Below are positions 939 to 33,757 of a stretch of 64,000 bases of DNA, piece by piece. The notes under the pieces were generated by a model that was not told where the DNA came from, did no database searches, and saw only the letters and a program-made list of their open reading frames with translations. Position 1 is the stretch's first letter. The number at the start of each line of letters is the position of its first letter. The stretch lies in IMG/VR virus record IMGVR_UViG_2775507110_000002; one strand, written 5' to 3'. The translations under genes and the position numbers were made by a program. The stretch comes from an uncultured virus (IMG/VR IMGVR_UViG_2775507110_000002). Lineage: Duplodnaviria; Heunggongvirae; Uroviricota; Caudoviricetes.

Positions 939-1480
939 TGGCAGGCGAGACCGTGATCACCGTAGTAGGCAACCTCGTCGACGACCCCGAGCTCCGCTTT
1001 ACCCCGGCGGGTGCCGCGGTGGCGAAGTTCCGGGTGGCGTCCGTACCGCGGGTGTTCGACAAGCAGGCCAACGAGTGGAAGGACGGCGAGGGCCTGTTCC
1101 TCTCGTGCTCGGTGTGGCGGCAGGCCGCTGAGAACGCCGCCGAGACGCTGCAGAAGGGCATGCGGGTGATTGTGCAGGGCCGGCTGAAGCAGCGGTCGTA
1201 CGAGGACCGTGAGGGTGTGAAGCGCACGGTGTACGAGCTGGACGTCGAGGAGGTCGGCCCGAGCTTGAAGAGCGCGACGGCGGTGGTGACGAAGACCAGC
1301 TCGAGCGGGTCCGGCGGCCAGGGGCGTGAGGCGTTCCATCGGGCGCGGCAGGAGCAGGGTGCGGTGTCGGCGGAGGATCCGTGGGCGTCGGGCACTCCGG
1401 GGACGTCCGGGGGCGCGCCGGCTGGTGGGTGGGGTGGTGGTTCCCAGGGTGGGGGCTACTCCGACGAGCCGCCGTTCTAG
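938..1480 (+). CDS. ssb: Single-stranded DNA-binding protein
   Basis: [24 protein letters not shown]-terminus, Gly-rich linker, DEPPF acidic tail; ATG overlaps previous stop (TGATG). Confidence 0.97.
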
Positions 1481-1499
1481 GGGCGGTTGAGTGCGGCGC

Positions 1500-1531
1500 A
1501 GGGTCCGGTCCTTTCGGGGGTCGGGCCCTTT
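1500..1531 (+). terminator. Hairpin terminator after ssb
   Basis: agggtccggtcc...gggtcgggccct stem with G-U pairs followed by ttg. Confidence 0.55.
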
Positions 1532-1561
1532 GTCGTGCCCGGTCACCCCTGGACCGTGAAA

Positions 1562-1594
1562 CGTATTGCTATGCAATACGAGAATGGGTATGGT
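1562..1594 (+). promoter_or_regulatory. Promoter with overlapping palindromic operator (copy 1)
   Basis: TTGCTA-N17-TATGGT overlapping CGTATTGC-tat-GCAATACG. Confidence 0.8.
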
Positions 1595-1631
1595 GGTGAC
1601 ACCGCACAACACCACCACCCAGGGGGAACCC

Positions 1632-2129
1632 GTGATCGACAACCTCGGCTTCCACACCGACAACGACCTCCACGCCGAACTCGCCGACCTCGACCGCCGC
1701 ATCAGCAACCTCGCCGCCCAGATCGACGGCGGCTACTTCCACAGCCCCGAAGCCGAGTGGAACACCTGGGCCCAGTACCAGAACCTCGCGGCCTCTCGCC
1801 CCGAGCTCGCCGCCAAGGTTGCCGAGGCCGACGCGGACACCGACCGCCTGCTCGACGCGATCCGCATTGTCGGCGACGTCGAGCTCGGGTTCATCGCCTA
1901 CGTCATCTACGGGCCCACCGTTCTGCCCGTGCCGGCGCTTCACGAGATTCGCCTCATCGAGCGCGACGGCGGCTACACCGTCCCCGGAACCGTCCGCCGC
2001 CGCGTGCCGGCCGACCAGGTCACCACGGTGGAGCGGGAACTGCTGACCGCGGTCGCGGCCCCGAACGGTCACGCCCGCCTGTGGGGTCGCACCGCCCGGG
2101 CCTACCGCACCCAGGTCATCGCGTACTGA
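1632..2129 (+). CDS. Hypothetical protein
   Basis: GTG start after GGGGGA; high-GC3 codon usage; directly below promoter. Confidence 0.75.
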   Translation: MIDNLGFHTDNDLHAELADLDRRISNLAAQIDGGYFHSPEAEWNTWAQYQNLAASRPELAAKVAEADADTDRLLDAIRIVGDVELGFIAYVIYGPTVLPVPALHEIRLIERDGGYTVPGTVRRRVPADQVTTVERELLTAVAAPNGHARLWGRTARAYRTQVIAY

Positions 2130-2201
2130 CCGCCCACCGGCCCACCGGAACCTCCACCCGGTGGGCCTCGACCGCTAGCGCACCCCCAAAGGGGGCCCAT
2201 C

Positions 2202-2396
2202 GTGCCGGAACTCCGCCTCCTCGACCCCGACGGCTATGTCGTCTCCGAGGGCCGCATCACCATCACCCCCACCACCGAACCCAAAGCCCGCACCGCCCTG
2301 AAGGCGCTCGCCATCGAGCACGCCAAGCAGTGGGCGTGGGCCCGCTACGACCACCGCAACTACCGCATCATCACCACCCAAGCCGCCCGCCCGTAA
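2202..2396 (+). CDS. Small hypothetical protein
   Basis: AAAGGGGG upstream, typical codon usage. Confidence 0.65.
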   Translation: MPELRLLDPDGYVVSEGRITITPTTEPKARTALKALAIEHAKQWAWARYDHRNYRIITTQAARP

Positions 2397-2475
2397 GGGT
2401 CGGTGTTCGCCCGGAACCCGCCCCCACCCCCAGTGGGGGCGGGCCCGGTGCCCCAAACGACCAGGAGGACACGCC

Positions 2476-2652
2476 ATGGCCACCGCCACCCACACCGTCA
2501 CCGCCGCCGACAGCCGTGGCGTCCCGCTGTTCATCCAGGAAGTGACGCCCCTCCAGATCGACGACGTGTGTCAGCAGCTCCGCGCCGAGTACCGGCCGGC
2601 CCTCGGCGAGGCCCTCCGGATCAGCGTCGAGCCCATCCGCTGCACCCACTGA
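2476..2652 (+). CDS. Small hypothetical protein (58 aa, not in ORF track)
   Basis: AGGAGG RBS then ATG; MATATHTVTAADSRGVPLF...IRCTH. Confidence 0.7.
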   Translation: MATATHTVTAADSRGVPLFIQEVTPLQIDDVCQQLRAEYRPALGEALRISVEPIRCTH

Positions 2653-2695
2653 CCGGCACGCCCCCTCCTCCTCCTTGCCACCGAAAGGCACCACC

Positions 2696-3070
2696 GTGAC
2701 CGTCGTCCGCCACCACATCGCACCCTCCCCGTTCGGTTGCCGGTGGTGCGGTGAACAGGCCGCGCACCACGGCAGCCGCTACGTCCGCTCCCGCGGCATG
2801 CACGCCTGGGAGCGGCCCACGAACACGCAGATCCTCGCCCGCATGCGGGCACGCCGGGAACGCCGTCTGAACGTGAAGCCCGTCTACCACGCCGCCACCA
2901 GGTGGGTGGCCTCCAGCAACCCGGAGGAAGGCATCCCCCTGTGCGGCGGGTGCTTTACCGAGAGCTGCGTGCCGTGGCTGCGGGTTCAGCGGCACCTTGA
3001 CCGGATCAGGTGGGACCTCGCCCGTTCCACGCCGTCGAAGCCCGGTACATGGGGCGGTGAGCCGTGGTAG
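2696..3070 (+). CDS. Cys/His zinc-finger-like hypothetical protein
   Basis: GAAAGG RBS; GCRWCG...H...H and LCGGC...C motifs. Confidence 0.7.
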   Translation: MTVVRHHIAPSPFGCRWCGEQAAHHGSRYVRSRGMHAWERPTNTQILARMRARRERRLNVKPVYHAATRWVASSNPEEGIPLCGGCFTESCVPWLRVQRHLDRIRWDLARSTPSKPGTWGGEPW

Positions 3071-3240
3071 CCGCCCCGACGCCGCCGTCGCCGAACGGCT
3101 GCCAGCACTGCGGCATCGACCAGCGCGAGCACATGCAGCAGTGGAAGCCCCCGGTCGGCTGGCACAAGTGGACGGCCCCCACCCAGGACCAGATCAAGAC
3201 CCGCATGCGCGCCCGCCGCGCCAACCGCAAGGAGCAGTAA
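3064..3240 (+). CDS. Small zinc-finger-like protein, paralog of upstream gene (58 aa, not in ORF track)
   Basis: PSPNGCQHCG...H...GWHKWTAPTQDQIKTRMRARR aligns with 2696..3070. Confidence 0.7.
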   Translation: MVAAPTPPSPNGCQHCGIDQREHMQQWKPPVGWHKWTAPTQDQIKTRMRARRANRKEQ

Positions 3241-3243
3241 CCC

Positions 3244-3639
3244 GTGGCCCGCTACAACATCAAGTTCGGGAAACTCGGCGACACTCGCCAGAGCGAGGAA
3301 GCGACGCAGTCCGCTGACCCCAAGCAGCCCGCCTACGACGCGGTGTTCGCGTACATCCGCAGCCAGCCCGACGTTGTCCCGGCCACCGTTGTGGAGCGGA
3401 ACGCGATGATCTGGCGTGCCGTGCACGCCGCGCTGGCCACCGCTCCGCCCGCGCAAACCGTCTCGGAACGCCTTGCGCTGGTCGAGGCGCTGGTATCCGA
3501 CTTCATCGACCCGGACCCGTGCTGGTTCGACCACCACGGCTACTGCCAGGCGCACGGCTGGGCTGCCACCGACCCGGGGTGTCCGCACGGTCGGGCGAAG
3601 GCCCTGGGCCTGGAGGAGACGGAAGAGGACGGCTCGTGA
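3244..3639 (+). CDS. Hypothetical protein
   Basis: AAGGAG RBS; CWFDHHGYCQAH...CPH motif. Confidence 0.7.
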   Translation: MARYNIKFGKLGDTRQSEEATQSADPKQPAYDAVFAYIRSQPDVVPATVVERNAMIWRAVHAALATAPPAQTVSERLALVEALVSDFIDPDPCWFDHHGYCQAHGWAATDPGCPHGRAKALGLEETEEDGS

Positions 3640-3791
3640 CCGTCCTCGACCCGGACTTCGTCGCCAACGCCTCCGCCGACGCCATCCGCACCCAGTACGA
3701 GAAGGCCCAGGCGCTCGCCGACCTCTGGTCCGACCGGGCCCGCGAACTGTTCCTGCTGATGACATCCCGAACGCCCAAGGAGCCCCAGTGA
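3636..3791 (+). CDS. Small hypothetical protein
   Basis: GTGA coupling on both sides. Confidence 0.55.
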   Translation: MTVLDPDFVANASADAIRTQYEKAQALADLWSDRARELFLLMTSRTPKEPQ

Positions 3792-9547: not shown

Positions 9548-10117
9548 TCAGAGCGGAGCGCCTCGCAGCTCGACGAGCCGGGCTCGCCCCTTGTCGGTGA
9601 GCCAGCTGGTGCGGAGGCTGACACCGCACTCCAGGTGCCCGCGGTCGTCCTCCCGCTCGTAGGCCGCGGTGACGACCTTCTCTGGGTACACCGTGCACAG
9701 CGTCCACCACGCCCCCGGGATCTCCCACCGGTACTTCCCGGGCGGGACAGGGCGTGTGCGGTGGTCGTGGATGGCTTGGAGGAGAGCAAGGGTGGTGATG
9801 TCGGCGCGCTTCGGCCGCGGGGGCGGGGCGTTCAGGGGGACGCGGCGGATTTCGGTGGCGGCCTCGGTGGGGTTGTCCGGGTCGACGTACCGGTGGCCCT
9901 CGCCGTTGCGGAGGAACTCGGTGTACTCGATCAACTGGGTGCCGTCGACCGTGGTGACGATGCTGATCGGGTCGAGGGCAACGTTGCTGGGGTCGATGCC
10001 GTGCTCGCGCACCCACGCCTGGAGCTTGGCGTTGCGTGGGGCGCCAAGCAGGTAGGGCCAGGTCTCGGGGGTGGCGAGGAGGGCCTGGATGTCGGCGGGT
10101 TCCGGGGCGGGGGTCAC
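9548..10117 (-). CDS. Hypothetical protein with wHTH-like C-terminus
   Basis: Coupled GTG start; C-terminal LECGVSLRTSWLTDKGRARL. Confidence 0.65.
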   Translation of the reverse strand: MTPAPEPADIQALLATPETWPYLLGAPRNAKLQAWVREHGIDPSNVALDPISIVTTVDGTQLIEYTEFLRNGEGHRYVDPDNPTEAATEIRRVPLNAPPPRPKRADITTLALLQAIHDHRTRPVPPGKYRWEIPGAWWTLCTVYPEKVVTAAYEREDDRGHLECGVSLRTSWLTDKGRARLVELRGAPL

Positions 10118-10518
10118 GTGTCCCCCTCGAGCCCGCCGCGACGCCGGGTCTTGCGCACGATCCGGCCGACCTCCCGGCCGATCTGGGCGGAATCGCCGGA
10201 CGCCTCGACCTGGACCTCGCGCTGGGCTTCTTCGAAGGGGATGGCGCACTCGAGGACGTGCCACACCAGGGTTCCGCCTGGGGCGATGACCGTGCCCATG
10301 TGCCAGGTGCCGACCGGCATGGGGTGCCCGGTGCCGACGACGGTGAACTCGCGGACGAGCGCGATGGAATCGGTCGGGGCACAGGCCCAGAACTCGACTA
10401 CGCCGTCCTGGCGGCACGCGAAGTACAGGGGCCCCTGGCCGATGGTGAACCGGTGGTTCTGGTCGTCAACGGGGATCTCGTAGCGGTGGATGACCTCGGG
10501 CTGGGCTGCGGTGCTCAT
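10114..10518 (-). CDS. Phage hypothetical protein
   Basis: IHRYEIPV...VEFWA...FTVVGTGHP...LVWHV; coupled to neighbours. Confidence 0.7.
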   Translation of the reverse strand: MSTAAQPEVIHRYEIPVDDQNHRFTIGQGPLYFACRQDGVVEFWACAPTDSIALVREFTVVGTGHPMPVGTWHMGTVIAPGGTLVWHVLECAIPFEEAQREVQVEASGDSAQIGREVGRIVRKTRRRGGLEGDT

Positions 10519-11012
10519 GCCTTCTCCACTTCGCCCGGCTGCGGCACGCTCTTGGAGTGGTGGAGCGGGGTGGTGGCGATGTCCCCGGCGGCCTGCTGCT
10601 CGGACAGGAGGTAGTACGTCTTCCCGCCGTCCGTGGAGAACGCCTCGCTGTTCCGGCGGGACTGCCACAGGGGAGTCGAGGTCATGCCTTCGGCGTACCG
10701 GTCGATCCACTCGCCAGGGTCGTCGGTGAGGTCGGTGAGGGGCTGGAACCGCAGGAGGCGTTCGAGGTAGGCGATGGCGTGTGGTGCGCTTCCGCCGCTG
10801 TGTCCCATGTCGGCGAAGGCTTGGACGACCTTGCAGAGGCCGCGGATGGTGTCGGGGTCTTCGCCGAGGATGCGGAGTTCGCGGCGTGCGTGGGCGACGA
10901 GGTTGGACTCGGTGGCGCGCGGGGTGGTGCTGCGGCGTCGGGACGGGCCGGGGGTCGGTTCGAGGGCTCCGGTGATGGCGGGAGCGTCGTCGTTGCTGAG
11001 GGAAGGGCTCAT
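10515..11012 (-). CDS. Phage hypothetical protein
   Basis: GHSGGSA...PLTDLTDDPGEW...LWQSRR motif. Confidence 0.75.
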   Translation of the reverse strand: MSPSLSNDDAPAITGALEPTPGPSRRRSTTPRATESNLVAHARRELRILGEDPDTIRGLCKVVQAFADMGHSGGSAPHAIAYLERLLRFQPLTDLTDDPGEWIDRYAEGMTSTPLWQSRRNSEAFSTDGGKTYYLLSEQQAAGDIATTPLHHSKSVPQPGEVEKA

Positions 11013-11088
11013 ACATCCATGCTGGGCCCGGTGAGGCGTTTCGTTGCCCCCGGTCGGGTGCGGGCCGACGCGGGGGCGCAGTGGCGGG

Positions 11089-12138
11089 TTAGGCGTGCCA
11101 GGTGCCGCGGAGGGCGGCGGTGTTGAACCCGGGCCCGTAGGCGACCATCACGCCGCGCGACCCGGGCGTGGGTGGCTCCGCGTGGGTGCGTTCCAGGATC
11201 CGGAGGACGGACGGCCCGCCGAGGTTGCCTTCCTGCTCCAGGGTGTCGGTGGAGTGCCGGGTGTCGTGGGCGTCGAGGCCGAGGGCGCGGGCGGTGTCGT
11301 TGATGATGCGCTGCGATCCGGGGTGGATGATCCCGAAGTCGACGAGCTCGGGGCCGAGCCACTTGAGGAGGTCGGGGAGGACGTCGTCGGCGGCGGTGAG
11401 CGCGGCTTTGGTGCTGTCGAAGTGGAAGCCGGTGTGGTCGACCCTGCCGTTGTAGCGGGTGAGGCTGTCGGGCAGGACGTGCTCGTAGGTGTCGTCGGGG
11501 GTGGCGATGTGGAGGCCGGGGCCGCGGGGGGTGCTGGTGACGATGGTGGCGGCTGCGCTGTCTCCGAACAGTGCCTTGTAGATCATGTGCTCGACTGCGT
11601 CGTCCTGGTGGTTGTAGACGGCGGAGATGACCTCGGCGGCGACGACGAGGACGGTGGAGCCGGGGCGGGCGCCGACCATGTCCACGGCGCGGATCAGGGC
11701 TTGGGTGCCGCCGGCGCAGGCGAGGGTGGTCAGGGCGATGCGCCGAACGTCGGGGCGTAGGCCCAGCTTCTCGACGAGGTGGATGTCGAGGTTGGGGACG
11801 GCCCAGCCGGTGGAGTGGGTGGTGATGATGGCGTCCACGTCGACCGGGGTCAGGTGGTGGAGGGTGAGGGTGCGCCGTGCTGCTTGCGCGGCGAGGTCGA
11901 GGGCGTCGCCGAAGGCGGTGGCCGCGCGGTCGCTGACGCCGGCGTCACCGGAGATGGTGGGGGCGTCGAGGGGGCGGGTGAAGTGCCGGGTCTGCACTCC
12001 GGTGTTCCCGACGATGCGGAGGATCGCCGAAAGCTTGGGGTGGTCGGGGTGGTGGTGGCGGATGTCGTCGGCGATCTCGGTGGTGGTGATTTGGTGGGTG
12101 GGGAACACGGTGGCGGGTTGGGCTATGTAGGCGGGCAC
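11089..12138 (-). CDS. Type III polyketide synthase (chalcone synthase-like)
   Basis: Cys (LACAGG), His (IIHPGS), Asn (GNLGG) triad, ALFGD and AYGPGF motifs; GGAGG RBS. Confidence 0.93.
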   Translation of the reverse strand: MPAYIAQPATVFPTHQITTTEIADDIRHHHPDHPKLSAILRIVGNTGVQTRHFTRPLDAPTISGDAGVSDRAATAFGDALDLAAQAARRTLTLHHLTPVDVDAIITTHSTGWAVPNLDIHLVEKLGLRPDVRRIALTTLACAGGTQALIRAVDMVGARPGSTVLVVAAEVISAVYNHQDDAVEHMIYKALFGDSAAATIVTSTPRGPGLHIATPDDTYEHVLPDSLTRYNGRVDHTGFHFDSTKAALTAADDVLPDLLKWLGPELVDFGIIHPGSQRIINDTARALGLDAHDTRHSTDTLEQEGNLGGPSVLRILERTHAEPPTPGSRGVMVAYGPGFNTAALRGTWHA

Positions 12139-12401
12139 GACATCCTCCGGCAGGCCTGGGCGGCTGTGTCACGCCAACCTAAGGCACGGCGGGTCGGGTA
12201 TTGCCCCTGATCAGAGGGGGTGTAAACGGGGCGTGCGGTCTGGTTCCGGTTGTTGGGGCGGGTGTGACCGGTGGTACCGGTGGTGTGGTTCCTGCGGTTC
12301 CCAGGGGTGGTTTCGGGCCCGGGGCGGGGGCATGGGTGAGGCCACCTGCGCGATGGGGGAGGTGCGTGCAGGTGGCCTCGGCCGGGGGGTGTGCTGGTTC
12401 G

Positions 12402-13238
12402 TCAGGTGGAGTCGGCGCGGAGGACGGGGGTGCGGGCGTGGGCCCTGGACTCCCCGGGGTGGAAGACAAGCACGATGAGGCGGGCCCCTGGGGCGGTCAT
12501 CGGCTGCGCCGCGCACATCGTGACCCACCCGGGGCCATCTTCGGCGTGGAGGAGGGGCCGTTCGTCACCGTCGGGGTGGATGTGGGCCACGGCACCGGTC
12601 CAGACGGGGGCGCAGTCCGGGTCGGCGAGGACATCCTGCTCGAGGCGGCGGAGGATCGGGTCGTCGGGTCGTGAGGCGAGGGCGGCGCGGAGTTGGGGGA
12701 GGACGAGGGGCGCCCAGGCGGTGTGCCAGTTGGTGAGCATGTGTCGGCCGCCTTCCTCGAGGACCATCCACCGCATGGTGTTGCGGGGGACAGCGCCGCG
12801 GGGGAAAAGGCGGGCGAACTCGGCGTTGTGGGCTATGAGCTCCCAGGAGGCGTCGGTGACGTACGCGGGGTGCAGCATGCCGTCGACAGCTTCCTGCCAG
12901 ACGCCAGGGACCTCTTTGCCGGAGCGGGGGGTGAGGGGCCCCGGGGGGTCGCCGATGCCCGCGTACCGGCAGAGGCTGGTCCACTCCTGTTCGTTGAGCC
13001 CTAGGAGGGTGGCGACGGTTCGGAGGTAGTCGCCCGGGGGGTTGGCCCAGACTCCCGACTCCAGGCGCTGGTATGTGCCTTCTGACCGGTTGGTCAGGGT
13101 GTCGATTTGTTGCTGTGTCAGCCCGGGGGCTCGTCGGCCTTGCTTGGTGGGGCGTATGAACCCGTGCCCTTGGGGGTCGATGAGTGCTCGACGCTCCGTC
13201 AGGAGTTTACGAAGGGGACCCTTACTTGCCTTGCTCAT
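12402..13238 (-). CDS. MmyB-like regulator (XRE HTH plus PAS-like ligand domain)
   Basis: RRAPGLTQQQID...TYQRLESG N-terminus; PAYVTDASWELIAHN...LF...NTMRW C-terminal domain. Confidence 0.88.
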   Translation of the reverse strand: MSKASKGPLRKLLTERRALIDPQGHGFIRPTKQGRRAPGLTQQQIDTLTNRSEGTYQRLESGVWANPPGDYLRTVATLLGLNEQEWTSLCRYAGIGDPPGPLTPRSGKEVPGVWQEAVDGMLHPAYVTDASWELIAHNAEFARLFPRGAVPRNTMRWMVLEEGGRHMLTNWHTAWAPLVLPQLRAALASRPDDPILRRLEQDVLADPDCAPVWTGAVAHIHPDGDERPLLHAEDGPGWVTMCAAQPMTAPGARLIVLVFHPGESRAHARTPVLRADST

Positions 13239-13613
13239 GCGGTTGATTTCCCCCGAGTGTATGAGGCATCCGGTGCGGTGAAAGCCTAGTTGCGCTCCCC
13301 GCTTTTAACACTGAAAAGTTTCCCTACAAAACCGCCGGTTTCCCCGCGATGCTGGTCCCGTGCCCCGCTGGCCTGCGGATCTTCGCAGCGTCCTGGGCGG
13401 GTGGGGTATGTGTGGGATTCCCGACCGAACCGTGAACAGTGTTCGGTCTCGGTGTCGCAGCCGGGAATTCCCACTACCTGTCCGGAACGTGGCGGGGAGT
13501 TTCTGGAACGCTTGGGCGTATCGCAGCGCGCCAAGTGTTCGAGGGCTTCCCGCCATTTCTCTGATCCCCTATCAGGGGTTGGGGCGGGGCAGGGTCGAAG
13601 GCGCGGCCGGTGC

Positions 13614-14039
13614 TCAGATGCCGGCCGCGCCTTCGCTGCGCCCGGGGGCGGCCGGTGGGTTGAGTGCGGCGCGGATGAGGTGGGCGCAGCACGACCCGAC
13701 GGGCCCGGCGTCGACGGCCTGGCGGACACGGGCCAAGGTGGCCTCGGCCTGCTGGACGGCGGGGATGAGCTGCTTGACGTGCCGCAGGTTGCCTTTGGCG
13801 ACGGCGTCGGAGGTGTCCGCGCGGCGGGCCAGTTCCTCGATGGCGGGGGCGAGCCGGGGCCAGGATTCCCCGCCGTGGGCTTCGTTGATCCCGGCGGCCT
13901 CCAACGCGTCGCGGGCTTCCTCCAGGAGCGCGGACCGTTCGCGGGCCCCGTTCTCCAGGAGGTCGAGCCGGTCGTACAGGGTGTCGAGGGCGTCGCTGGT
14001 GAGGTCGTCGAGCGGGATGCGCTCGGGCTGGGTGGTCAC
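13614..14039 (-). CDS. Hypothetical coiled-coil protein
   Basis: IPLDDLTSDALDTLY; coupled GTG start. Confidence 0.65.
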   Translation of the reverse strand: MTTQPERIPLDDLTSDALDTLYDRLDLLENGARERSALLEEARDALEAAGINEAHGGESWPRLAPAIEELARRADTSDAVAKGNLRHVKQLIPAVQQAEATLARVRQAVDAGPVGSCCAHLIRAALNPPAAPGRSEGAAGI

Positions 14040-14209
14040 CGGGCCCCCTCGGTGGCGGGGCGGCGTTCCAGGAGGGTGCTGGCGGCGTCGGGTTCGGGGC
14101 ATTCGATGCGGGCGCAGGTGACGTAGCCGCCGGAGCCGAGGAACAGGGACTCGCGGTGGCAGGCGGGGCAGTGGCCTTGGACTGTGGGGAAGCCGGTCTG
14201 TTCGGCCAT
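14036..14209 (-). CDS. Small zinc-ribbon protein
   Basis: GAAAGGA RBS; VQGHCPAC...GYVTCARIECP. Confidence 0.7.
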   Translation of the reverse strand: MAEQTGFPTVQGHCPACHRESLFLGSGGYVTCARIECPEPDAASTLLERRPATEGAR

Positions 14210-14268
14210 GGCGTGGTCCTTTCGGGGTTGGTGGCCGCCCTGGGGTGGGGCGGCCACACAGCAGACGG

Positions 14269-14607
14269 TCAGGCGGCGGCGTCGGTGGGCGGCTTGGGCC
14301 ACCGCTTCCGGCAGGCCGCCTTGTTCGTGCACACGGTGATCGGGGCAATCTCCGGGGCCTCCAGCACGGTGAAGGACCGCTTGCCGATCCGGCCGCACTG
14401 GTCGCAGTGGCGGACGTAGACGTCGCGGGCGTGGCTGCCGGAGGCGGGGCCGACGTAGCCGAGCTGGTGCATCTGGTCCATGAGGTCGCTGGCCTCGCGG
14501 AAGCCGATCCGCATCCACCGCTGGAGGGCGGACGCCGCACCATGCTGATGAGTAGCGACGAGTTCGATGGCCCGCTCCAGCGGCGGGTCGGTAACGGGCG
14601 TGGTCAT
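14269..14607 (-). CDS. Stand-alone FtsK gamma-domain protein with zinc ribbon
   Basis: AIELV...AASALQRWMRIGFREASDLMDQMHQLGYVGPASGSHARDV; CDQC...CTNKAAC. Confidence 0.85.
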   Translation of the reverse strand: MTTPVTDPPLERAIELVATHQHGAASALQRWMRIGFREASDLMDQMHQLGYVGPASGSHARDVYVRHCDQCGRIGKRSFTVLEAPEIAPITVCTNKAACRKRWPKPPTDAAA

Positions 14608-14655
14608 GTGGTGTCTCCTCGGTGGGCCGGGATCACCCGGCAGCAGGGGCGGGGG

Positions 14656-15447
14656 TCAGGCGGCCAGTGCGTCGGTGAAGCACCCGCAGCCGCCCTCGTC
14701 GAACAGGTCGAGCTGGTCGGGCTGCTCATCGATGCGCTGCCGCAGGGCGGTGAGGGTGAGGGGCTTGGTGTCGCCACCGGTCCGGTCGCGAAGAATCGAT
14801 ACGTCCTTGCCGAGGAGGTCACGCATCTTGACCTCGGCGCGCTCGGCGCGGGCGTACCGCTCGGGAAAGACGTCCAGGAGCCGCGCCCACTGGGCCTGGC
14901 CGCCCTTGACGCAGGCGCCGCCGCAGTTGTTGTGCGCGAAGCCGAGGCGGTAGAGCCGGGGATCGACCAGGCCAGCAGCCCTAGCCTCGGCGCGCAGCTG
15001 CTGCTTGTGGCGGATCGGCGGCCGGGTGAGGGGGGCGTCGACTGTCCAGGGGGCCCAGCCCTTGACGATGCCGGGCATGCGCTCTTCCTCGCTCCAGTCG
15101 ATCCCGACGTACAGGGTCGTGCTGGCCGGGTCGGTGTTCTCGACCAGCCACCGGCGGCACGGCTCCTGCTTGAGGGCGTGGGAGCACTGGGCGATGCGGG
15201 TGTTGCCGAGCCACCGCTTGTCCTCGAACACCTGCCACGGGTCGCGGCCGTCGGCGACGCGGGTGATCGGCAGCCCGAGCTGGGCGGCGGCCTGCTCGTT
15301 GAACGCGTAGAGGTCTTCGTCCTCGACCAGGGTGTCGGCGAACAGCAGGGTGGTGCTGGCCGTGCCGTGTTCGGCGACGACGTGGCGGGCGGTGGCCCAG
15401 CTGGTGATGCCGCCGGACCACATGACGACGTGCTGGTGCTGGGTCAT
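14656..15447 (-). CDS. PAPS reductase-like / PP-loop protein
   Basis: VVMWSGGITS, LFADT, CSHALK, HNNCGGACVKGG, GCGCF. Confidence 0.8.
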   Translation of the reverse strand: MTQHQHVVMWSGGITSWATARHVVAEHGTASTTLLFADTLVEDEDLYAFNEQAAAQLGLPITRVADGRDPWQVFEDKRWLGNTRIAQCSHALKQEPCRRWLVENTDPASTTLYVGIDWSEEERMPGIVKGWAPWTVDAPLTRPPIRHKQQLRAEARAAGLVDPRLYRLGFAHNNCGGACVKGGQAQWARLLDVFPERYARAERAEVKMRDLLGKDVSILRDRTGGDTKPLTLTALRQRIDEQPDQLDLFDEGGCGCFTDALAA

Positions 15448-16376
15448 CGTGTGGGCTCCTCGGGCGCGGCAGGGGCAGCGGGCTCCGGCTCGACGGTGTA
15501 CGTGGTGGTCTTCCGGACGGTGCGGGTCTCGGCGTCCGGGTGGCGGCGGGTGACGCTCGCCCGGCGCCGGACCGCGACGGCAGGGTCGGCGTGTGCCCCG
15601 AGGTACTCCCAAGCGCCGTCGAGCTCTTGGACCTCGGCGATGTACTCGACGGACGGCGGGTGCGCCTCGGTCGTGGTGGTCTGCTGCACCCCGGCGGCAG
15701 CCTCACCGGCCAGACGGCGCAGGTGGTCGGCGACGCGGAGAATGCCGACGTTCTCGGAAACCTGCGCGGCATTTCGGGCGAGGCTGGGCGAGTTGAACTC
15801 GCGGAGGGACTCGGCGATGTCGGCGGCTTCGCGGAGCGCGGCGGCCCGGTCGGCAGGCGCAGGCGGGGCAGCGGCAGGGCGCGCGTCCAGGCAGCGCGTG
15901 TCCGCCCCGGGGCTGTGGATCCACCCGGGCCCGCCAGGGTGGGTCATCCACTCGATGGGGTCTCCGCAGACGCAACGGCGGTTGGCCTCGGCCGCGCTGG
16001 TGCCGAGGAGTTGCCGGGCCACCACCAGGGCAGGGCACGGCAGGTTCAGTCGGTTGCGGCTGGGGATGCAGTAGCCGCATTCGGTGTCGGGCAGGTGCCG
16101 GGTCGCTGAGTCCTTCAGCCAGTCGGCCACAGCGAGACCGACCACGGGGTGCATCAGGGCGATGTACGGCAGGTCGGCGCGCTCGGCCGGGTGGTCCGTG
16201 TCGCTCCGGTCGGCGACGATCATCCCGTCGGCGCAGCGGACGACGTGCTCGTCGGTCACCGTCCACGGGCCGGGCGAGGCACGGTGTGCGCGGGCGGCCT
16301 CCTCCCGCAGCTTCTCGGCGGCGGCGCGCAGCTGGTCGGCGGGGCGGTCAGCGGGGGTGGGTGAGGTGGGCATCAA
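15444..16376 (-). CDS. Mosaic phage hypothetical protein
   Basis: LRAAAEKLR, PGPW, YIALMHP, AALREAAD segments. Confidence 0.7.
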   Translation of the reverse strand: MMPTSPTPADRPADQLRAAAEKLREEAARAHRASPGPWTVTDEHVVRCADGMIVADRSDTDHPAERADLPYIALMHPVVGLAVADWLKDSATRHLPDTECGYCIPSRNRLNLPCPALVVARQLLGTSAAEANRRCVCGDPIEWMTHPGGPGWIHSPGADTRCLDARPAAAPPAPADRAAALREAADIAESLREFNSPSLARNAAQVSENVGILRVADHLRRLAGEAAAGVQQTTTTEAHPPSVEYIAEVQELDGAWEYLGAHADPAVAVRRRASVTRRHPDAETRTVRKTTTYTVEPEPAAPAAPEEPTR

Positions 16377-16407
16377 CGGCTCCAGTGGTGGTGTGTAGGG
16401 CGGGTGG

Positions 16408-17154
16408 TCATGCGGCGGGCAGAGTCAGCGCGGACAAGCGGAGGGCCGCGGCCTCGCAGTAGCGTTCATCCGCCTCCACGCCGATCGCCCGCCGGCCAGA
16501 CTGGCGAGCCGCGTCGAGGGTGGAGCCGCTGCCAGCGAACGGATCCAGGACCAGGCCGCTGGGCGGGCAGGCATAGGTGACCAGCGGGGCAAGGATGCCG
16601 AGCGGCTTCTCGGTCGGGTGGATCGCGCGTCCGTGCATCGAGTGGACCTTCACCACCGAGCGAGTGAGCCGGTCATGGCCGATGTATCCCTCGTGGCTGC
16701 CAATCTCGCCGGTGTGCTTCGTGCTCGTGCGGCGCGGCACTGCTTTGACGTTGCTGCCGTGGTACGCCTCGCGCGGAACGTCGTGGTGCACGTGCCGCCA
16801 GTCGCCGCGGTACCAGTGGGTGGCGAGTTCGTGGACGCGCTTGAACCGGTCGGTCGCGAACCCGCTGCCGTTGTGCTTCTCCCACACCACGTCCTGCGAC
16901 AGGCGCCAGGCGGCGAACTCGTCACGCTGCTGAAGGAACATCCGCATGCTCCCGAAGCACCACATGCTGCTCGCGTGCGCCGCGGCGGCGGTGGGCCAGC
17001 CGTCGGGCCACCGGTCCCAGGCAAGGCTGGTCTCGGCGTAGGGCGGGTCTGCCACGATCAAATCGGCGGTGACGTCCAGCGCGGGAAGGACCTCGCGCAT
17101 GTCACCGAGGTACAGGTAGATCCCTGCGTCCTCGTCCTTCCAGTACGGATCCAT
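16408..17154 (-). CDS. Beta-class N6-adenine/N4-cytosine DNA methyltransferase
   Basis: DPPY precedes HPTEKP and VLDPFAGSGST. Confidence 0.93.
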   Translation of the reverse strand: MDPYWKDEDAGIYLYLGDMREVLPALDVTADLIVADPPYAETSLAWDRWPDGWPTAAAAHASSMWCFGSMRMFLQQRDEFAAWRLSQDVVWEKHNGSGFATDRFKRVHELATHWYRGDWRHVHHDVPREAYHGSNVKAVPRRTSTKHTGEIGSHEGYIGHDRLTRSVVKVHSMHGRAIHPTEKPLGILAPLVTYACPPSGLVLDPFAGSGSTLDAARQSGRRAIGVEADERYCEAAALRLSALTLPAA

Positions 17155-17268
17155 CAAGAGCTCCAGGTGAGTGCAGGTACGGTGGTCCGGCCGGCTGCCC
17201 CTGCTTTCCTCAGGGGCAGCCGATACTGCGTGGGTCACAGCCCCTCCGCGACGAGCCGGCCGAGCCCG

Positions 17269-31291: not shown

Positions 31292-33757
31292 ATGGCCGAG
31301 CCCCAGCGCCTCTACCTCACGAACACCCCACCGCCCGCCGACACCACCAAGACCCCGAGAAAGAACACCAAGAACCAGTCCCGGCTACCCCCGCTCGACT
31401 GGGCCGCCTCACACGGGCCCATCACCGGCGCCGTCTCCGCGACAACCGGCGCTGCCGCCGTAGCCCTCCTCGGCACCGCCACCGGCATGCCCGACACCCT
31501 GCCCCTCCTCATCGGCGCAACAGGAGCCATCGGCCACGGCATCGGCCACAGCGTCTTTCGTCGCCTCACCGCCCGCACCGGCGTCACCCGCGCCGCATCC
31601 TGGCTCCTCGCCGGCGGCTGGACCACCTGGGCCATGACCACCGGCCCCCTCACCTGGGCAGCCGCAGGAACCCTCACCGGCATCGGCGTCGGCATCGGAG
31701 CCATGGCCTCCAACGCCGCCATGCACGAAGAAGTCGCCGAAGACGAACGCCTCACCGCCGAAGCCCGCCAGCTCGCCCAGGAACTCGACGCCGGCCGCCG
31801 CGCCATCGCCAACGAATGGCACGACCGACTCCTGCGCGTCACCCGCCTCGACGTCAAAATCTTCGCCGTCGAGCAGTGGAAGAACGGAGCCGGATACTCC
31901 ATCGCCGGAGAACTCCCCGGCGCCGCCGTCTGGACCACCATCCGCGACAAGCACCGCGCACTGGCCGCAGACGCCCGCCTGCCCCGCGGCTGCACCATCC
32001 ACGTCGAAGAAGGCGACATCCAAGGCCGCGTCGTCATCGACGTCACCACCGTCAACATCATGGGCGACATCGTCGACTACCCCACCGACTACACCCCCCT
32101 CTCCATCCTCACCGGCATCCCCTGGGGCTCCCAGCCCAACTCCCAGCCCGTCACCGTCTACCTCCGCGAAGCATGCGCCCTCGTCCTCGGCCCGCCCGGA
32201 TCCGGCAAGTCCACCTTCCTCGACGGGATCATCGCCGGGTTCGCCCGCTGCGTAGACGTCGTCACCTGGGTCATCGACCTCAAGGCCGGAGCCGTCGGCC
32301 GCCCCTGGGCCCGCCCGTGGCTCGAAGCAGCAGGACACATGAAGCCGACCCCGGGTACCGACCGCGCCCCCGAAGGAACCCGCCCCGGAGTCGACTGGAT
32401 CGCCTCCACCCCCGCCGAAGCACTCCTCATGATGCGCGTCGTCCTCGCGATCAACGCCGCCCGCCAGCACCACTACCAAGACCTCATGGACGCGGCGAAC
32501 ACCACGCTCCTGCCCGTCTCCCGCACCATCCCGCAAATCGAAGTCGTCATCGACGAAGGCGCCGAACTCCTGTCCGCCGCCACCCACGGCGACCCCGTCA
32601 TGAAGGAACTCCAGGCCGCCGTCAAGAAGACGATGCGCACCACCCGCGCCATGGCCGAACGCCTCGTCCTCACCGCAATCGACGGAAACGTATCCGCGAT
32701 CGGCAACACCGAAGTCCGCAAGTTCTCCCCGGTCGGCGCAGCCCTCACCTCCGGCGAATCCGTCACCAGCAACATCAGCAAGCTGTTCTCCAGCGTCCGC
32801 GTCGACACCAGCCAGCTCAACGAGAAGGGCGCCGGCGTCATCGGCCAGGCCGGAGCCGACGGCTTCGAACCCACCCCGTTCAAGACGTGGCGCACCAGCC
32901 CCAACATGGTCCGCGACGTCGTCCTCGCCACCAACGACACCCGCCCCCACCTCGACCAGGCCTCCGCCACCGCGGGCGGCAACATCTACGCCCAGCGCTG
33001 GACCCCCGAGCGCGCAGGATGGCTCTGGGGGGCACCCGAGTACACCGACCCCGACCCCGGCACCGCCCCTGCCCTCCCCGCCCAGACCGGCACCCAGCAG
33101 CCGCAAACCCCCCGCAGCAACCGCCCCGCACAGAACACCGGCGGGGGCCTCAACCTCTCCTACAAGCGGCGCCAGCAGCCCCTTCCCGCAGAAGACCCCG
33201 ACCAGCTCGCAGCCCGCCTCATGGAACAGATCGACCAGGAGTACGGCACCACCGACGAGCCCAGCACCAGCGGCCTCAACCTCTCCTACAAGCGAACCCA
33301 GCCCGAAGACCGCACCGACCCCCGCCTCACCTTCGCCCGCAACCTCATCCGTGCCGCCGGACCTGACGGGCTTGACACCCGCGACCTGTGGCCCGCCCTC
33401 GCCCAGGAGTTCGGCCCCGAAGGCTGGGACCGCACCGTCGTCACGAACTGGCTGAGCAAGGACGTCACCGCAGGGCGCCTCCACCGCAAGGCCAAGGGCA
33501 TCTACGGCCACGGCCCCCAGCCCGACGACGCCGACGATCACGGAACGGCAGAGGAAACAGAGCTGACCGAGCTCCTCCCGACTGCCGTCGACCTGGTCGT
33601 CACCAAACAGCGGGCATCCGCCCAGTTCCTGCAGCGCAACCTCCGCATCGGCTGGGACCTCGCCAACACACTCCTCGGCGCCCTCGAAGCCCAGGGCGTC
33701 ATCGGCACCCCACAGGAAGACGGATCCCACCCCGTCCTCCGGCAGCCCGACAACTGA
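31292..33757 (+). CDS. traB: TraB-like FtsK/SpoIIIE conjugative DNA translocase
   Basis: N-terminal TMs, Walker A GPPGSGKS, IDLK, Walker B VVIDEGAE, C-terminal wHTH and FtsK-gamma domain. Confidence 0.88.
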   Translation: MAEPQRLYLTNTPPPADTTKTPRKNTKNQSRLPPLDWAASHGPITGAVSATTGAAAVALLGTATGMPDTLPLLIGATGAIGHGIGHSVFRRLTARTGVTRAASWLLAGGWTTWAMTTGPLTWAAAGTLTGIGVGIGAMASNAAMHEEVAEDERLTAEARQLAQELDAGRRAIANEWHDRLLRVTRLDVKIFAVEQWKNGAGYSIAGELPGAAVWTTIRDKHRALAADARLPRGCTIHVEEGDIQGRVVIDVTTVNIMGDIVDYPTDYTPLSILTGIPWGSQPNSQPVTVYLREACALVLGPPGSGKSTFLDGIIAGFARCVDVVTWVIDLKAGAVGRPWARPWLEAAGHMKPTPGTDRAPEGTRPGVDWIASTPAEALLMMRVVLAINAARQHHYQDLMDAANTTLLPVSRTIPQIEVVIDEGAELLSAATHGDPVMKELQAAVKKTMRTTRAMAERLVLTAIDGNVSAIGNTEVRKFSPVGAALTSGESVTSNISKLFSSVRVDTSQLNEKGAGVIGQAGADGFEPTPFKTWRTSPNMVRDVVLATNDTRPHLDQASATAGGNIYAQRWTPERAGWLWGAPEYTDPDPGTAPALPAQTGTQQPQTPRSNRPAQNTGGGLNLSYKRRQQPLPAEDPDQLAARLMEQIDQEYGTTDEPSTSGLNLSYKRTQPEDRTDPRLTFARNLIRAAGPDGLDTRDLWPALAQEFGPEGWDRTVVTNWLSKDVTAGRLHRKAKGIYGHGPQPDDADDHGTAEETELTELLPTAVDLVVTKQRASAQFLQRNLRIGWDLANTLLGALEAQGVIGTPQEDGSHPVLRQPDN

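Follow-up and report, generated by a model that had tools for sequence, protein, structure and literature searches.

A vioB–vioA-like type III polyketide synthase cassette as probable accessory cargo of a pZL12-like Streptomyces phage-plasmid

The closest described counterpart of the locus analyzed here is the vioA/vioB pair of Streptomyces somaliensis SCSIO ZH66, in which the type III polyketide synthase (PKS) VioA makes 3-methyl-4-hydroxy-6-alkyl-α-pyrones and VioB represses vioA (available parts of PMC4924298 and PMC5898002). Deletion of vioA abolishes violapyrone B ([M+H]+ 225.149), deletion of vioB raises it approximately eightfold, the neighboring ORFs are without effect, and expression of both genes depends on the developmental regulator WblA (PMC4924298). 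VioA has been expressed in S. coelicolor M1146, and vioAB is listed for 21 further genomes (PMC5898002). The pair is located on a circular plasmid of ∼85 kb that is related to pCQ3 and pCQ4. Violapyrones inhibit methicillin-resistant Staphylococcus aureus (MRSA), with a best MIC of 25 µg/mL (PMC4924298). VioA, Gcs and Cpz6 share clade B2-2 (PMC5898002, section 5), and because Cpz6 yields the same compound with 53% identity to VioA (PMC4924298), the product class holds over a wide range of identity. In the available parts of these texts, no MmyB-like regulator is mentioned as a partner of Cpz6 or Gcs. The MmyB/MltR family combines an XRE DNA-binding domain with a PAS-like ligand domain; its members adjoin antibiotic genes, and the MmyB-like structure 3pxp holds a fatty-acid-like ligand (PMC3406030, in the part available). 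The words "phage" and "MmyB" have zero occurrences each in PMC4924298 and PMC5898002, and a literature search joining "MmyB-like" with "type III" found no paper. One paper that deals with Streptomyces phage-plasmids and type III PKSs notes that such clusters occurred exclusively in prophages on plasmids. A more distant parallel is the Photorhabdus PpyS/PluR system, attributed to Brachmann in 2013 and reportedly a pyrone quorum-sensing system in which signaling was demonstrated. It likewise joins a small ketosynthase-made α-pyrone to a dedicated receptor, but its synthase and receptor families are unrelated to those described below, so the resemblance is one of logic only.

The window (the whole 64-kb stretch of DNA that was analyzed) contains a pair of genes that closely parallels vioA and vioB. 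The first-pass annotation had described an intact type III PKS directly downstream of a co-oriented XRE/PAS-like regulator, and both ORFs are indeed present on the minus strand, the PKS gene at 11089–12138 and the regulator gene at 12402–13238, with a gap of 263 bp between them. The pair is not an unknown system but corresponds to the violapyrone cassette vioA/vioB already in print, whose VioB acts negatively on vioA. In S. somaliensis as well, an XRE-type regulator lies directly upstream of a type III PKS in a two-gene unit, and the protein lengths are similar (350 and 272 aa, compared with 349 and 278 aa in the window). The two loci differ in sequence (identities of ∼75% for the PKS and ∼65% for the regulator, estimated through a pCQ3 proxy), in the replacement of I174 by Val, and in their flanking genes. 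The nearest deposited relative is the pZL12.100/pZL12.99 pair (GQ919031), with identities of 90.8% for the PKS and 92.4% for the regulator, the same gene order and strand, and a related phage backbone, but with different downstream neighbors and no Tad3-like gene. Their annotation goes no further than "type III polyketide synthase" and "transcriptional regulator". The annotated pZL12.100 product is 447 aa long and its gene overlaps the regulator gene, which probably reflects a mis-set start.

The assignment of the vioA-like gene is based on Pfam and NCBIfam scans and on alignments with PDB sequences. The protein scored above the Pfam cut-off for Chal_sti_synt_N (77.4 bits, cut-off 27) and also for FAE1_CUT1_RppA, ACP_syn_III and ACP_syn_III_C (28.5 bits for the last, cut-off 26.6), and Chal_sti_synt_C, at 26.6 bits, fell just below its cut-off of 27. 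It matched 120 type III PKS sequences in the PDB at E ≤0.001, the top solved relatives being 1u0m (3.4e-45), 3v7i (2.9e-43) and Pks11 (4jao; 7.7e-35). The catalytic triad is formed by Cys141, His272 and Asn305, which align with the catalytic residues of these three structures and are invariant in an alignment of six sequences, as are the HPGS (residues 272–275) and GNLGG (residues 304–308) motifs. Gcs (3v7i), the second-best solved relative, has the same G-N-x-G-G pattern, although it is only distantly similar and has 413 residues in the solved chain; GNLGG resembles the GNRGG of the Gcs type and not the RppA type. An earlier suggestion that HPGS and GNLGG mark a distinct clade was borne out, the clade being that of the VioA/Cpz6 pyrone synthases. 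Full-length identity between the window PKS and pCQ3.110c (WP_012840496.1) is 75%, and the latter is in turn 95% identical to VioA (PMC4924298, Table 1); identity to VioA was gauged through this pCQ3 proxy and not from the VioA sequence itself. Among the positions of VioA probed by mutagenesis (I174, L190, Y229 and S242; PMC5898002, section 9), L190, Y229 and S242 are kept and I174 is conservatively replaced by Val. G231, known from the G231L variant named in abstracts on violapyrone, is also kept. In the phylogenetic tree, the window PKS falls within one starred clade (97) with P0041, a protein of S. albidoflavus that by eye is nearly identical to pCQ3.110c in the printed blocks of the six-sequence alignment. 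Judged by sequence, the window PKS is a VioA ortholog, and its predicted product is an alkyl-α-pyrone of the violapyrone type. This prediction calls for caution, as a few substitutions can alter the specificity of a type III PKS and the window copy, at 75% identity, carries Val in place of I174.

The regulator was characterized by Pfam, AlphaFold2 and Foldseek. It comprises an N-terminal XRE helix-turn-helix (HTH_31, residues 35–86; 27.5 bits, cut-off 27, E 3.9e-6) and a PAS-like ligand-binding domain (MLTR_LBD, residues 115–268; 64.7 bits, cut-off 26.3, E 1.4e-17). A phmmer comparison of the regulator with the PDB gave no matches, and PHROGs contained no family for the PKS or the regulator. 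The AlphaFold2 model had a pLDDT of 88.1, and its best Foldseek match was the MmyB-like 3pxp (chains B and A; E 4.6e-9, 281–284 aligned columns), followed by isolated PAS domains at E 1e-3 or weaker. The match to 3pxp has a TM-score of only 0.42–0.45, an rmsd of 14 Å and a sequence identity of ∼21%, and we tentatively attribute the low TM-score to the two domains being arranged differently in the model. Identity of the regulator to its counterparts is 65.3% for pCQ3 and 63.9% for pCQ4, and these counterparts are themselves 94–95% identical to VioB (PMC4924298). The pCQ3 protein used here is WP_093561384.1, the current record for what the paper lists as WP_012840387.1, and the two were equated from gene order alone, WP_012840388.1 being encoded by the next gene. 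VioB is thus a member of the ligand-binding MmyB family. MmyB is an activator with a TTA codon in its gene, in contrast to VioB, which is a repressor in print; since identity to VioB is only ∼65% and MmyB is an activator, the sign of regulation could differ in the window copy. TTA codons occurred in 2 of 27 regulator genes (in one case as the first codon of the range that matched) and in 1 of 11 PKS genes, and control of the cassette by bldA was rejected because these codons are not conserved.

The non-coding DNA of the cassette has conserved elements on the minus strand. The 263-bp region between the two genes (12139–12401) contains a terminator-like hairpin after vioB, an inverted repeat at 12338–12379 with 15-nt arms that are 93% complementary, and a putative vioA promoter with a conserved −10-like TAGGTT (12176–12181), the palindrome CTGATCAG (12207–12214) and the ribosome-binding site GGAGGA within 12143–12150. 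A profile of 21 homologous vioA upstream regions matched 12141–12206 with an E-value of 4.9e-4. The region upstream of vioB (13239–13613) has a non-coding block, a putative vioB promoter/operator, that is kept in 21 phage-plasmid and chromosomal loci (profile match at 13251–13380, E 1.5e-20), and the region contains a −10-like TAGGCT (13283–13288), the AT-rich inverted repeat TTTTCAGTGTTAAAA (13303–13317) and a ribosome-binding site (13247–13254). The stop codon of the gene upstream of vioB is spanned by a perfect 15-bp hairpin (13596–13635, minus strand; 100% complementary arms and a 10-nt loop), a candidate terminator that likely insulates vioB from upstream transcription. A simple terminator scan found no terminator with a T-run, a scan for sigma-70 consensus promoters gave no sites, and an Rfam scan of 10000–14700 returned nothing at E ≤1. 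The promoter and operator roles are proposed here from sequence conservation. A strict TTTT-N4-10-AAAA palindrome was present upstream of vioB in only 6 of 24 loci and between vioB and vioA in none of the 24, and is therefore not a general operator. No shared VioB box could be named, as cross-scans of the vioB-upstream profile against the vioA-upstream regions, and the reverse, gave nothing below E = 3.

The surroundings of the cassette are those of a phage. Its neighbors, which are phage accessory or early genes without tailoring or export functions, comprise a Tad3-like gene, a DUF7352 gene, ThyX, an FtsK-gamma protein, a PAPS-reductase-like gene and a DNA methylase. PHROG assignments placed terminase, portal, scaffold, major head, tail, tape-measure and holin genes at 36.5–64 kb. 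The large terminase subunit (TerL) shares 96.9% identity with its counterpart in phage ZL12, and 72% of the segment 30001–55000 matches ZL12 at 86.8% identity, which confirms the pZL12-like phage nature of the window. Relatives carry ParA/ParB, and sequenced ones measure ∼85–94 kb, compared with 64 kb for the window. Among the sequencing runs listed, none of RNA contained the window, and the best DNA run shared 0.26 of its words. When positions 10000–14000 were compared with ZL12 by megablast, the only match was at query positions 1088–3659 (84.7% identity) with differing flanks, which delimits the cassette as a mosaic module common to both at 11087–13658. The ZL12 locus yielded no Tad3 homolog.

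The two genes are consistently linked. In a sample of 301 Streptomyces genomes, the regulator lies directly upstream of the PKS gene and in the same orientation in 23 of 26 assessable loci; adjacency was also observed in 10 of 10 Streptomyces genome loci, and among pZL12-like plasmids in PLSDB the cassette is present in 26 of 34, mostly ∼22–30 kb from TerL and in the same arrangement. The identities of the PKS and regulator to the window proteins are strongly correlated (r = 0.94 for 34 loci and r = 0.97 for the 26 plasmids), so the proposal that the synthase and the ligand-type regulator form a true functional pair is upheld. PKS identity is uncorrelated with TerL identity (r = −0.09, 26 plasmids), which argues that the cassette swaps among backbones. 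The two genes therefore travel and diverge as one unit that is independent of the backbone. The first-pass annotation had named homologs that are mostly chromosomal and unlinked as a finding that would speak against it. Most carriers in the species sample do lie off pZL12-like phages, with 21 of 23 cassette-carrying genomes having no related terminase, but the genes are not unlinked. Conversely, 17 of 19 genomes with a pZL12-like terminase lack the cassette, and none was found in pSAM1 or NZ_CP109172.1 across the 48–49 kb examined, including the syntenic junction. Around the chromosomal copies (∼77% identity) lie NRPS, cold-shock, protease and esterase genes. The tree requires seven switches between contigs of ∼90 kb and large contigs, at least five of which are forced by starred branches, and both genes are under purifying selection (dN/dS 0.09–0.34).

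We consider it likely that the window pair is a vioB–vioA violapyrone cassette and travels as accessory cargo on a temperate, pZL12-like phage-plasmid of Streptomyces. The present analysis contributes the identities of the genes, their orthology as judged from sequence, the linkage and joint divergence of the pair, its mobility and the purifying selection on it, whereas published work on the S. somaliensis ortholog contributes the compound made and the repression by VioB; for the window copy we infer the product, the ligand, the operators and any benefit to the phage-plasmid. In the proposed mechanism, the VioA-like protein would act as a homodimeric type III PKS, performing condensation with methylmalonyl-CoA followed by lactonization to give 3-methyl-4-hydroxy-6-alkyl-α-pyrones. 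By analogy with VioB, the MmyB-family regulator would be made from its own promoter and repress vioA, and derepression would presumably occur when an amphiphilic ligand fills its PAS-like pocket. Each gene would form its own transcription unit, bounded by the hairpin after the upstream gene and the one after vioB, and the two would move as one module between chromosomes and phage-plasmids. The term "accessory cargo" sits uneasily with carriage by 26 of the 34 sequenced pZL12-like plasmids, and the cassette could have a role in the life cycle of the element.

What the element gains is a further question, and a possible though doubtful answer is lysogenic conversion, in which the pyrones act on cells, either by inhibiting competitors or, like germicidin, by affecting germination and hyphal growth, and so favor the carrier strain and with it the element. 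The anti-MRSA activity of violapyrones is in line with this reading, although it is weak. It also draws on the grouping of VioA with Gcs and Cpz6, on the dependence of vioB and vioA expression on WblA, and on germicidin A, a closely related 4-hydroxy-α-pyrone that reversibly inhibits Streptomyces germination (PMC5733532, in the part available). Purifying selection on both genes also fits a benefit of this kind. Against it, among the literature matches listed (titles and the starts of abstracts) no tests of violapyrones on Streptomyces germination or on phages were found, and no conserved TTA (bldA) codon ties the cassette genes to development.

A more specific proposal, to which we give a small chance, is that retention of the cassette by pZL12-like temperate phage-plasmids reflects an effect of the pyrone on the population of carriers itself, whether it slows germination or hyphal growth in the manner of germicidin or reports density to VioB. 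If this were true, the timing of host growth, of sporulation and of susceptibility to induction and transfer would come under the control of the element, and this would be phage-carried signaling by a small polyketide, a chemistry unlike that of the known peptide-based phage communication. The full autoinducer circuit, in which the pyrone tracks carrier density and VioB senses it and tunes lysis/lysogeny, transfer or host development, appears unlikely. The synthase and the ligand-type receptor do constitute a self-contained, linked and co-diverging pair that most of the PLSDB plasmids above carry in the same arrangement; pockets of the MmyB family accept amphiphilic molecules that combine a polar head with an alkyl tail (PMC3406030), a shape that violapyrones also have, and pyrones are known signals, germicidin being an autoregulatory α-pyrone (PMC5733532). 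The distribution speaks against a circuit tied to the phage, since cassette and pZL12-like terminase mostly occur apart in the species sample, pSAM1 and NZ_CP109172.1 lack the cassette in the segments examined, chromosomal copies sit among ordinary chromosomal genes, and the cassette swaps among backbones. The vioB and vioA upstream profiles, moreover, matched only their own sites within the 64-kb window (next-best E ≥2), and this profile search, a low-power test, found no link from the cassette regulatory DNA to other phage genes. Print reports only repression of vioA, and no response to the product. A viral signaling role of the pair is speculation, and accessory carriage of a violapyrone cassette remains our preferred explanation.

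Production of a different compound, for example a malonyl-primed naphthalene, a phloroglucinol or a resorcinol, is suggested by database names, as GenBank labels pZL12.100 "similar to RppA" and PGAP names relatives PhlD. We regard it as improbable. Although 1u0m is the best solved relative of the window PKS by score and identity to the VioA proxy is only 75%, 1u0m is only remotely similar (158 bits over 346 residues), the DpgA equivalog of NCBIfam scored 104.5 bits against a cut-off of 425, and both the GNLGG motif and the starred clade with P0041 place the enzyme with the pyrone synthases. In addition, Gly231 of the window PKS aligns with a tyrosine of RppA that is needed for malonyl priming. 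Very improbable is a sulfonate carrier as for the Cpz6 presulficidins, with a pyrone that is sulfated from PAPS and passes the sulfate on, perhaps linked to the PAPS-reductase-family gene at 14656–15612, 1.4 kb upstream and adjoining the DNA methylase gene: unlike the large caprazamycin antibiotic cluster of Cpz6 with its sulfotransferases, the scanned neighbors include no sulfotransferase family, the PAPS link was rejected because the PAPS-reductase-like and methylase genes also occur in NZ_CP109172.1 (69% and 55% identity), in which the 49 kb examined revealed neither a PKS nor a regulator, and the authors of PMC4924298 argue for a different role (section 11).

In summary, the window pair is a new copy of a two-gene natural-product cassette already characterized in Streptomyces, on a mobile element of known type. 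The comparison brings out two points seemingly unstated in the vioAB papers, namely that the "plasmids" carrying the cassette are temperate phage-plasmids of the pZL12 type, and that VioB is one of the ligand-binding MmyB proteins.

The gene pair at positions 11089–13238 of the window (− strand) is a new copy of vioAB, a cassette already known and characterised, and the element that carries it is likewise of a known type. In Streptomyces somaliensis SCSIO ZH66, deletion of the gene for the type III polyketide synthase (PKS), vioA, which lies on a circular plasmid of roughly 85 kb, was reported to abolish violapyrone B, and deletion of the adjacent XRE-family gene vioB raised it about eightfold; deletion of the flanking ORFs had no effect, so that the vio cluster was reported to consist of only vioA and vioB (Huang et al. 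2016, PMC4924298). Of other published work, one study noticed the PKS of pSLE1 and pZL12 and judged it to lie outside any cluster (Gomez-Escribano et al. 2015, PMC4487206), and another described T3PKS clusters as confined to prophages on plasmids (Sharma et al. 2023, PMC10023795).

The synthase gene (11089–12138, −) is an ORF encoding 349 aa. In agreement with the first-pass annotation, the PKS is intact and its Cys141, His272 and Asn305 align with the catalytic residues of the nearest solved structures, 1u0m (3.4e-45), 3v7i (2.9e-43) and Pks11 (7.7e-35). The motifs HPGS and GNLGG are likewise present as described and are invariant in a six-sequence alignment. In Pfam, Chal_sti_synt_N scored 77.4 bits, FAE1_CUT1_RppA, ACP_syn_III and ACP_syn_III_C also exceeded their cut-offs, and Chal_sti_synt_C fell slightly under (26.6 bits; cut-off 27). 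No NCBIfam equivalog was attained (DpgA, 104.5 bits versus a cut-off of 425). The database labels ‘RppA-like’ and ‘PhlD’ carried by relatives are unsupported: Gly231 aligns where RppA has the tyrosine on which its malonyl priming depends. The remaining residues at VioA-numbered sites are V174, L190, Y229 and S242; in VioA, assigned to the pyrone-forming clade B2-2 together with Cpz6, DpyA and Gcs, I174A and Y229A were reported to severely impair production and S242A to abolish it (Hou et al. 2018, PMC5898002). The PKS is 75% identical to WP_012840496.1 (pCQ3.110c of Streptomyces sp. W9, confirmed as the protein beneath the plasmid match H17), to which VioA is 95% identical (PMC4924298, Table 1). 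For an ortholog at this distance a violapyrone-type product is a reasonable inference, because Cpz6, 53% identical to VioA, was reported to yield the same compound (PMC4924298).

The regulator gene (12402–13238, −; 278 aa) lies 263 bp upstream of the PKS gene on the same strand. Its annotation as an HTH/PAS-like regulator is borne out by the Pfam domains HTH_31 and MLTR_LBD, the MmyB-like ligand-binding domain (E 1.4e-17), and by structure prediction. A phmmer search of solved structures found no relative. The AlphaFold2 model (pLDDT 88.1, from 26 homologs) gave as best Foldseek match the MmyB-like structure 3pxp over its full length (E 4.6e-9), with isolated PAS domains ranking after it; the TM score to 3pxp was low (0.42–0.45), which fits a different placement of the two domains relative to each other in the model. 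The regulator is 63.9% identical to the pCQ4 regulator and 65.3% to that of pCQ3, which now bears a differing accession (WP_093561384.1) and was therefore matched with its Table 1 entry by position only; VioB is reported to be 94–95% identical to both (PMC4924298, Table 1). Members of the MmyB family are described as binding amphiphilic molecules that have a polar head and alkyl tail (PMC3406030). This shape suits violapyrones as well as their beta-keto-acyl precursors, either of which would be a candidate ligand of VioB.

Judging by two hairpins, the PKS and regulator genes would form separate transcription units. One, with a perfect 15-bp stem, spans the stop of the gene upstream (13596–13635), and the second lies 3′ of vioB (12338–12379). 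A block of ∼130 nt located 5′ of vioB is conserved in phage-plasmid and chromosomal copies (profile on the window, E 1.5e-20) and contains a putative −10-like TAGGCT (13283–13288) and an AT-rich inverted repeat (13303–13317) of putative function. Upstream of vioA, the candidate elements are a conserved −10-like TAnGTT (12176–12181), a palindrome, CTGATCAG (12207–12214), and a GGAGGA ribosome site. Consensus promoter and terminator scans returned no site, and a box common to the vioA- and vioB-upstream regions could not be defined. In a wblA mutant, vioA was reported by qPCR to be up and vioB down (PMC4924298), which agrees with separate promoters and repression by VioB.

The window is the genome of a tailed phage. 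PHROG matches between 36.5 and 64 kb comprise large terminase, portal, scaffold, major head, major tail, tape measure and minor tail proteins and a holin; further matches are DnaB, SSB, ThyX, a DNA methylase, a PAPS-reductase-like protein and an FtsK/SpoIIIE protein. An FtsK/SpoIIIE-type translocase (31292–33757, +; phrog_31069, E 2.7e-74) is located just ahead of the packaging genes and fits Streptomyces-style conjugal transfer, which the pZL12 paper, by its title, reportedly describes. The large terminase (TerL) is 96.9% identical to that of the plasmid-phage ZL12, which matches 72% of positions 30001–55000 at 86.8% identity and merely 27% of positions 1–25000, in 10 pieces. In a megablast of positions 10000–14000, the ZL12 match was restricted to 11087–13658, exactly the cassette, and covers pZL12.100 (‘type III polyketide synthase’) and pZL12.99 (‘transcriptional regulator’). 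pZL12.100 (L001 9449–10792) is annotated as 447 aa with a 47-bp overlap with the regulator gene; this GenBank start is probably wrong because all homologs begin at MPAYIA..., giving 349 aa. The window terminase gene is uninterrupted. In several relatives (plasmid matches H106, H116, H118, H120, H129, H130, H135 and H138) the terminase match is broken in two by a gap of about 1 kb and overlies annotations for homing endonucleases of the HNH or LAGLIDADG type, which suggests an intein or intron inside the gene.

Directly downstream of the PKS gene lies a Tad3-like gene (10515–11012, −; Pfam Tad3, a type I Thoeris inhibitor family, 115.9 bits, E 1.2e-33); Tad3 is reported to bind the ThsB sensor (2026 review, PMC13728456). 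Neither the ZL12 locus nor three related phage-plasmid loci, in their 6-kb flanks, showed a Tad3 homolog, and this convergent junction therefore looks like a hotspot of swapped accessory genes. Between the Tad3-like gene and ThyX are two small genes (10114–10521 and 9548–10135, both −), one with DUF7352 (70.7 bits) and the other without a Pfam match. An FtsK-gamma-domain protein, a PAPS-reductase-like protein (phrog_424) and an N6/N4 DNA methylase are encoded in a row at 14269–17238 (−). The latter two also adjoin in NZ_CP109172.1, where no vioAB was found in the region examined, and this points to a module for DNA modification that has nothing to do with the pyrone.

The first-pass annotation had proposed the cassette as a possible phage signalling system, in which the PKS product would be sensed by the cognate receptor. 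In layout the cassette matches a synthase–receptor pair, and the pairing is real. Among 301 genomes of a Streptomyces species sample, 23 contain 27 PKS loci (E of 1e-70 or better), 23 of them with a co-oriented regulator directly upstream; three (L035, L037, L039) have no regulator within 1.5 kb and L034 is truncated by a contig end. The pair was present at 10/10 Streptomyces loci of the genome collection and absent from an eleventh, Myxococcales locus (PKS 30% identical). Over 34 loci, PKS and regulator identities to the window co-vary (r = 0.94). PLSDB contains 34 plasmids whose terminase shares 54% identity or more with that of the window (next best ∼40% or lower), at least 26 of which retain both genes less than 1 kb apart, among the best 44 of 208 PKS and best 60 of 175 regulator matches. 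Over these 26, r was 0.97 for PKS and regulator and −0.09 for PKS and TerL; the co-divergence asked about is thus found, and the pair diverges as a unit shuffled among phage backbones. Both genes are under purifying selection (dN/dS 0.09–0.34, three comparisons each). The free recombination of the pair among backbones speaks against a phage signalling role, as does the lack of the cassette in some pZL12-like elements: in two of the eight other plasmids, pSAM1 and NZ_CP109172.1, neither gene was found at E ≤1e-3 in 48–49 kb including the syntenic junction. At three chromosomal loci, a second and more distant MmyB-like gene (38–45% identical) lies beside the cassette (L019 1–438, L031 2649–3422, L038 605–1432); in L031 and L038 the PKS gene is on the other strand, and in L019 the second gene is cut off by the locus end.

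The cassette also functions and endures in chromosomes without any phage. The species sample ties the cassette less closely to phages: a related terminase occurs in 19/301 genomes, and only two of these, G032 and G145, also contain the cassette, in G145 with both on one contig. Copies ∼77% identical to that of the window lie on contigs of 177–443 kb, and the annotated neighbours in L002 and L010 include NRPS, cold-shock, alpha-lytic-protease and carboxylesterase genes. A FastTree phylogeny covered 145 proteins: that of the window, those of 120 database clusters and those of 24 sample loci (omitting the duplicates L013 and L014 and the fragment L034). Contig size served as the proxy label of its rows (80–110 kb versus at least 190 kb; 50 rows unlabelled). 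The label changes seven times, at least five of them forced by starred branches (shuffle mean 31.7), and the deepest rows all come from terminase-free genomes. This fits a chromosomal origin of the cassette with repeated capture and return, a reading in which the label is indirect and the tree root is not established. In G005, which also has an intact plasmid copy, a PKS fragment on the largest contig (C1:317611–318174; residues 157–337, 73% identical, two in-frame TAA stops) is likely a decayed chromosomal copy.

The proposal is thus supported in part; its signalling half is not supported, and against it stand the phage-free chromosomal copies and the regulatory blocks, which have no other copy in the 64-kb window (next-best matches, E at least 2); the two vio papers (PMC4924298, PMC5898002) mention neither phage nor MmyB. 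Conceivably the pyrone could act in the control of germination, since its close chemical relative germicidin A is reported to inhibit germination (PMC5733532).
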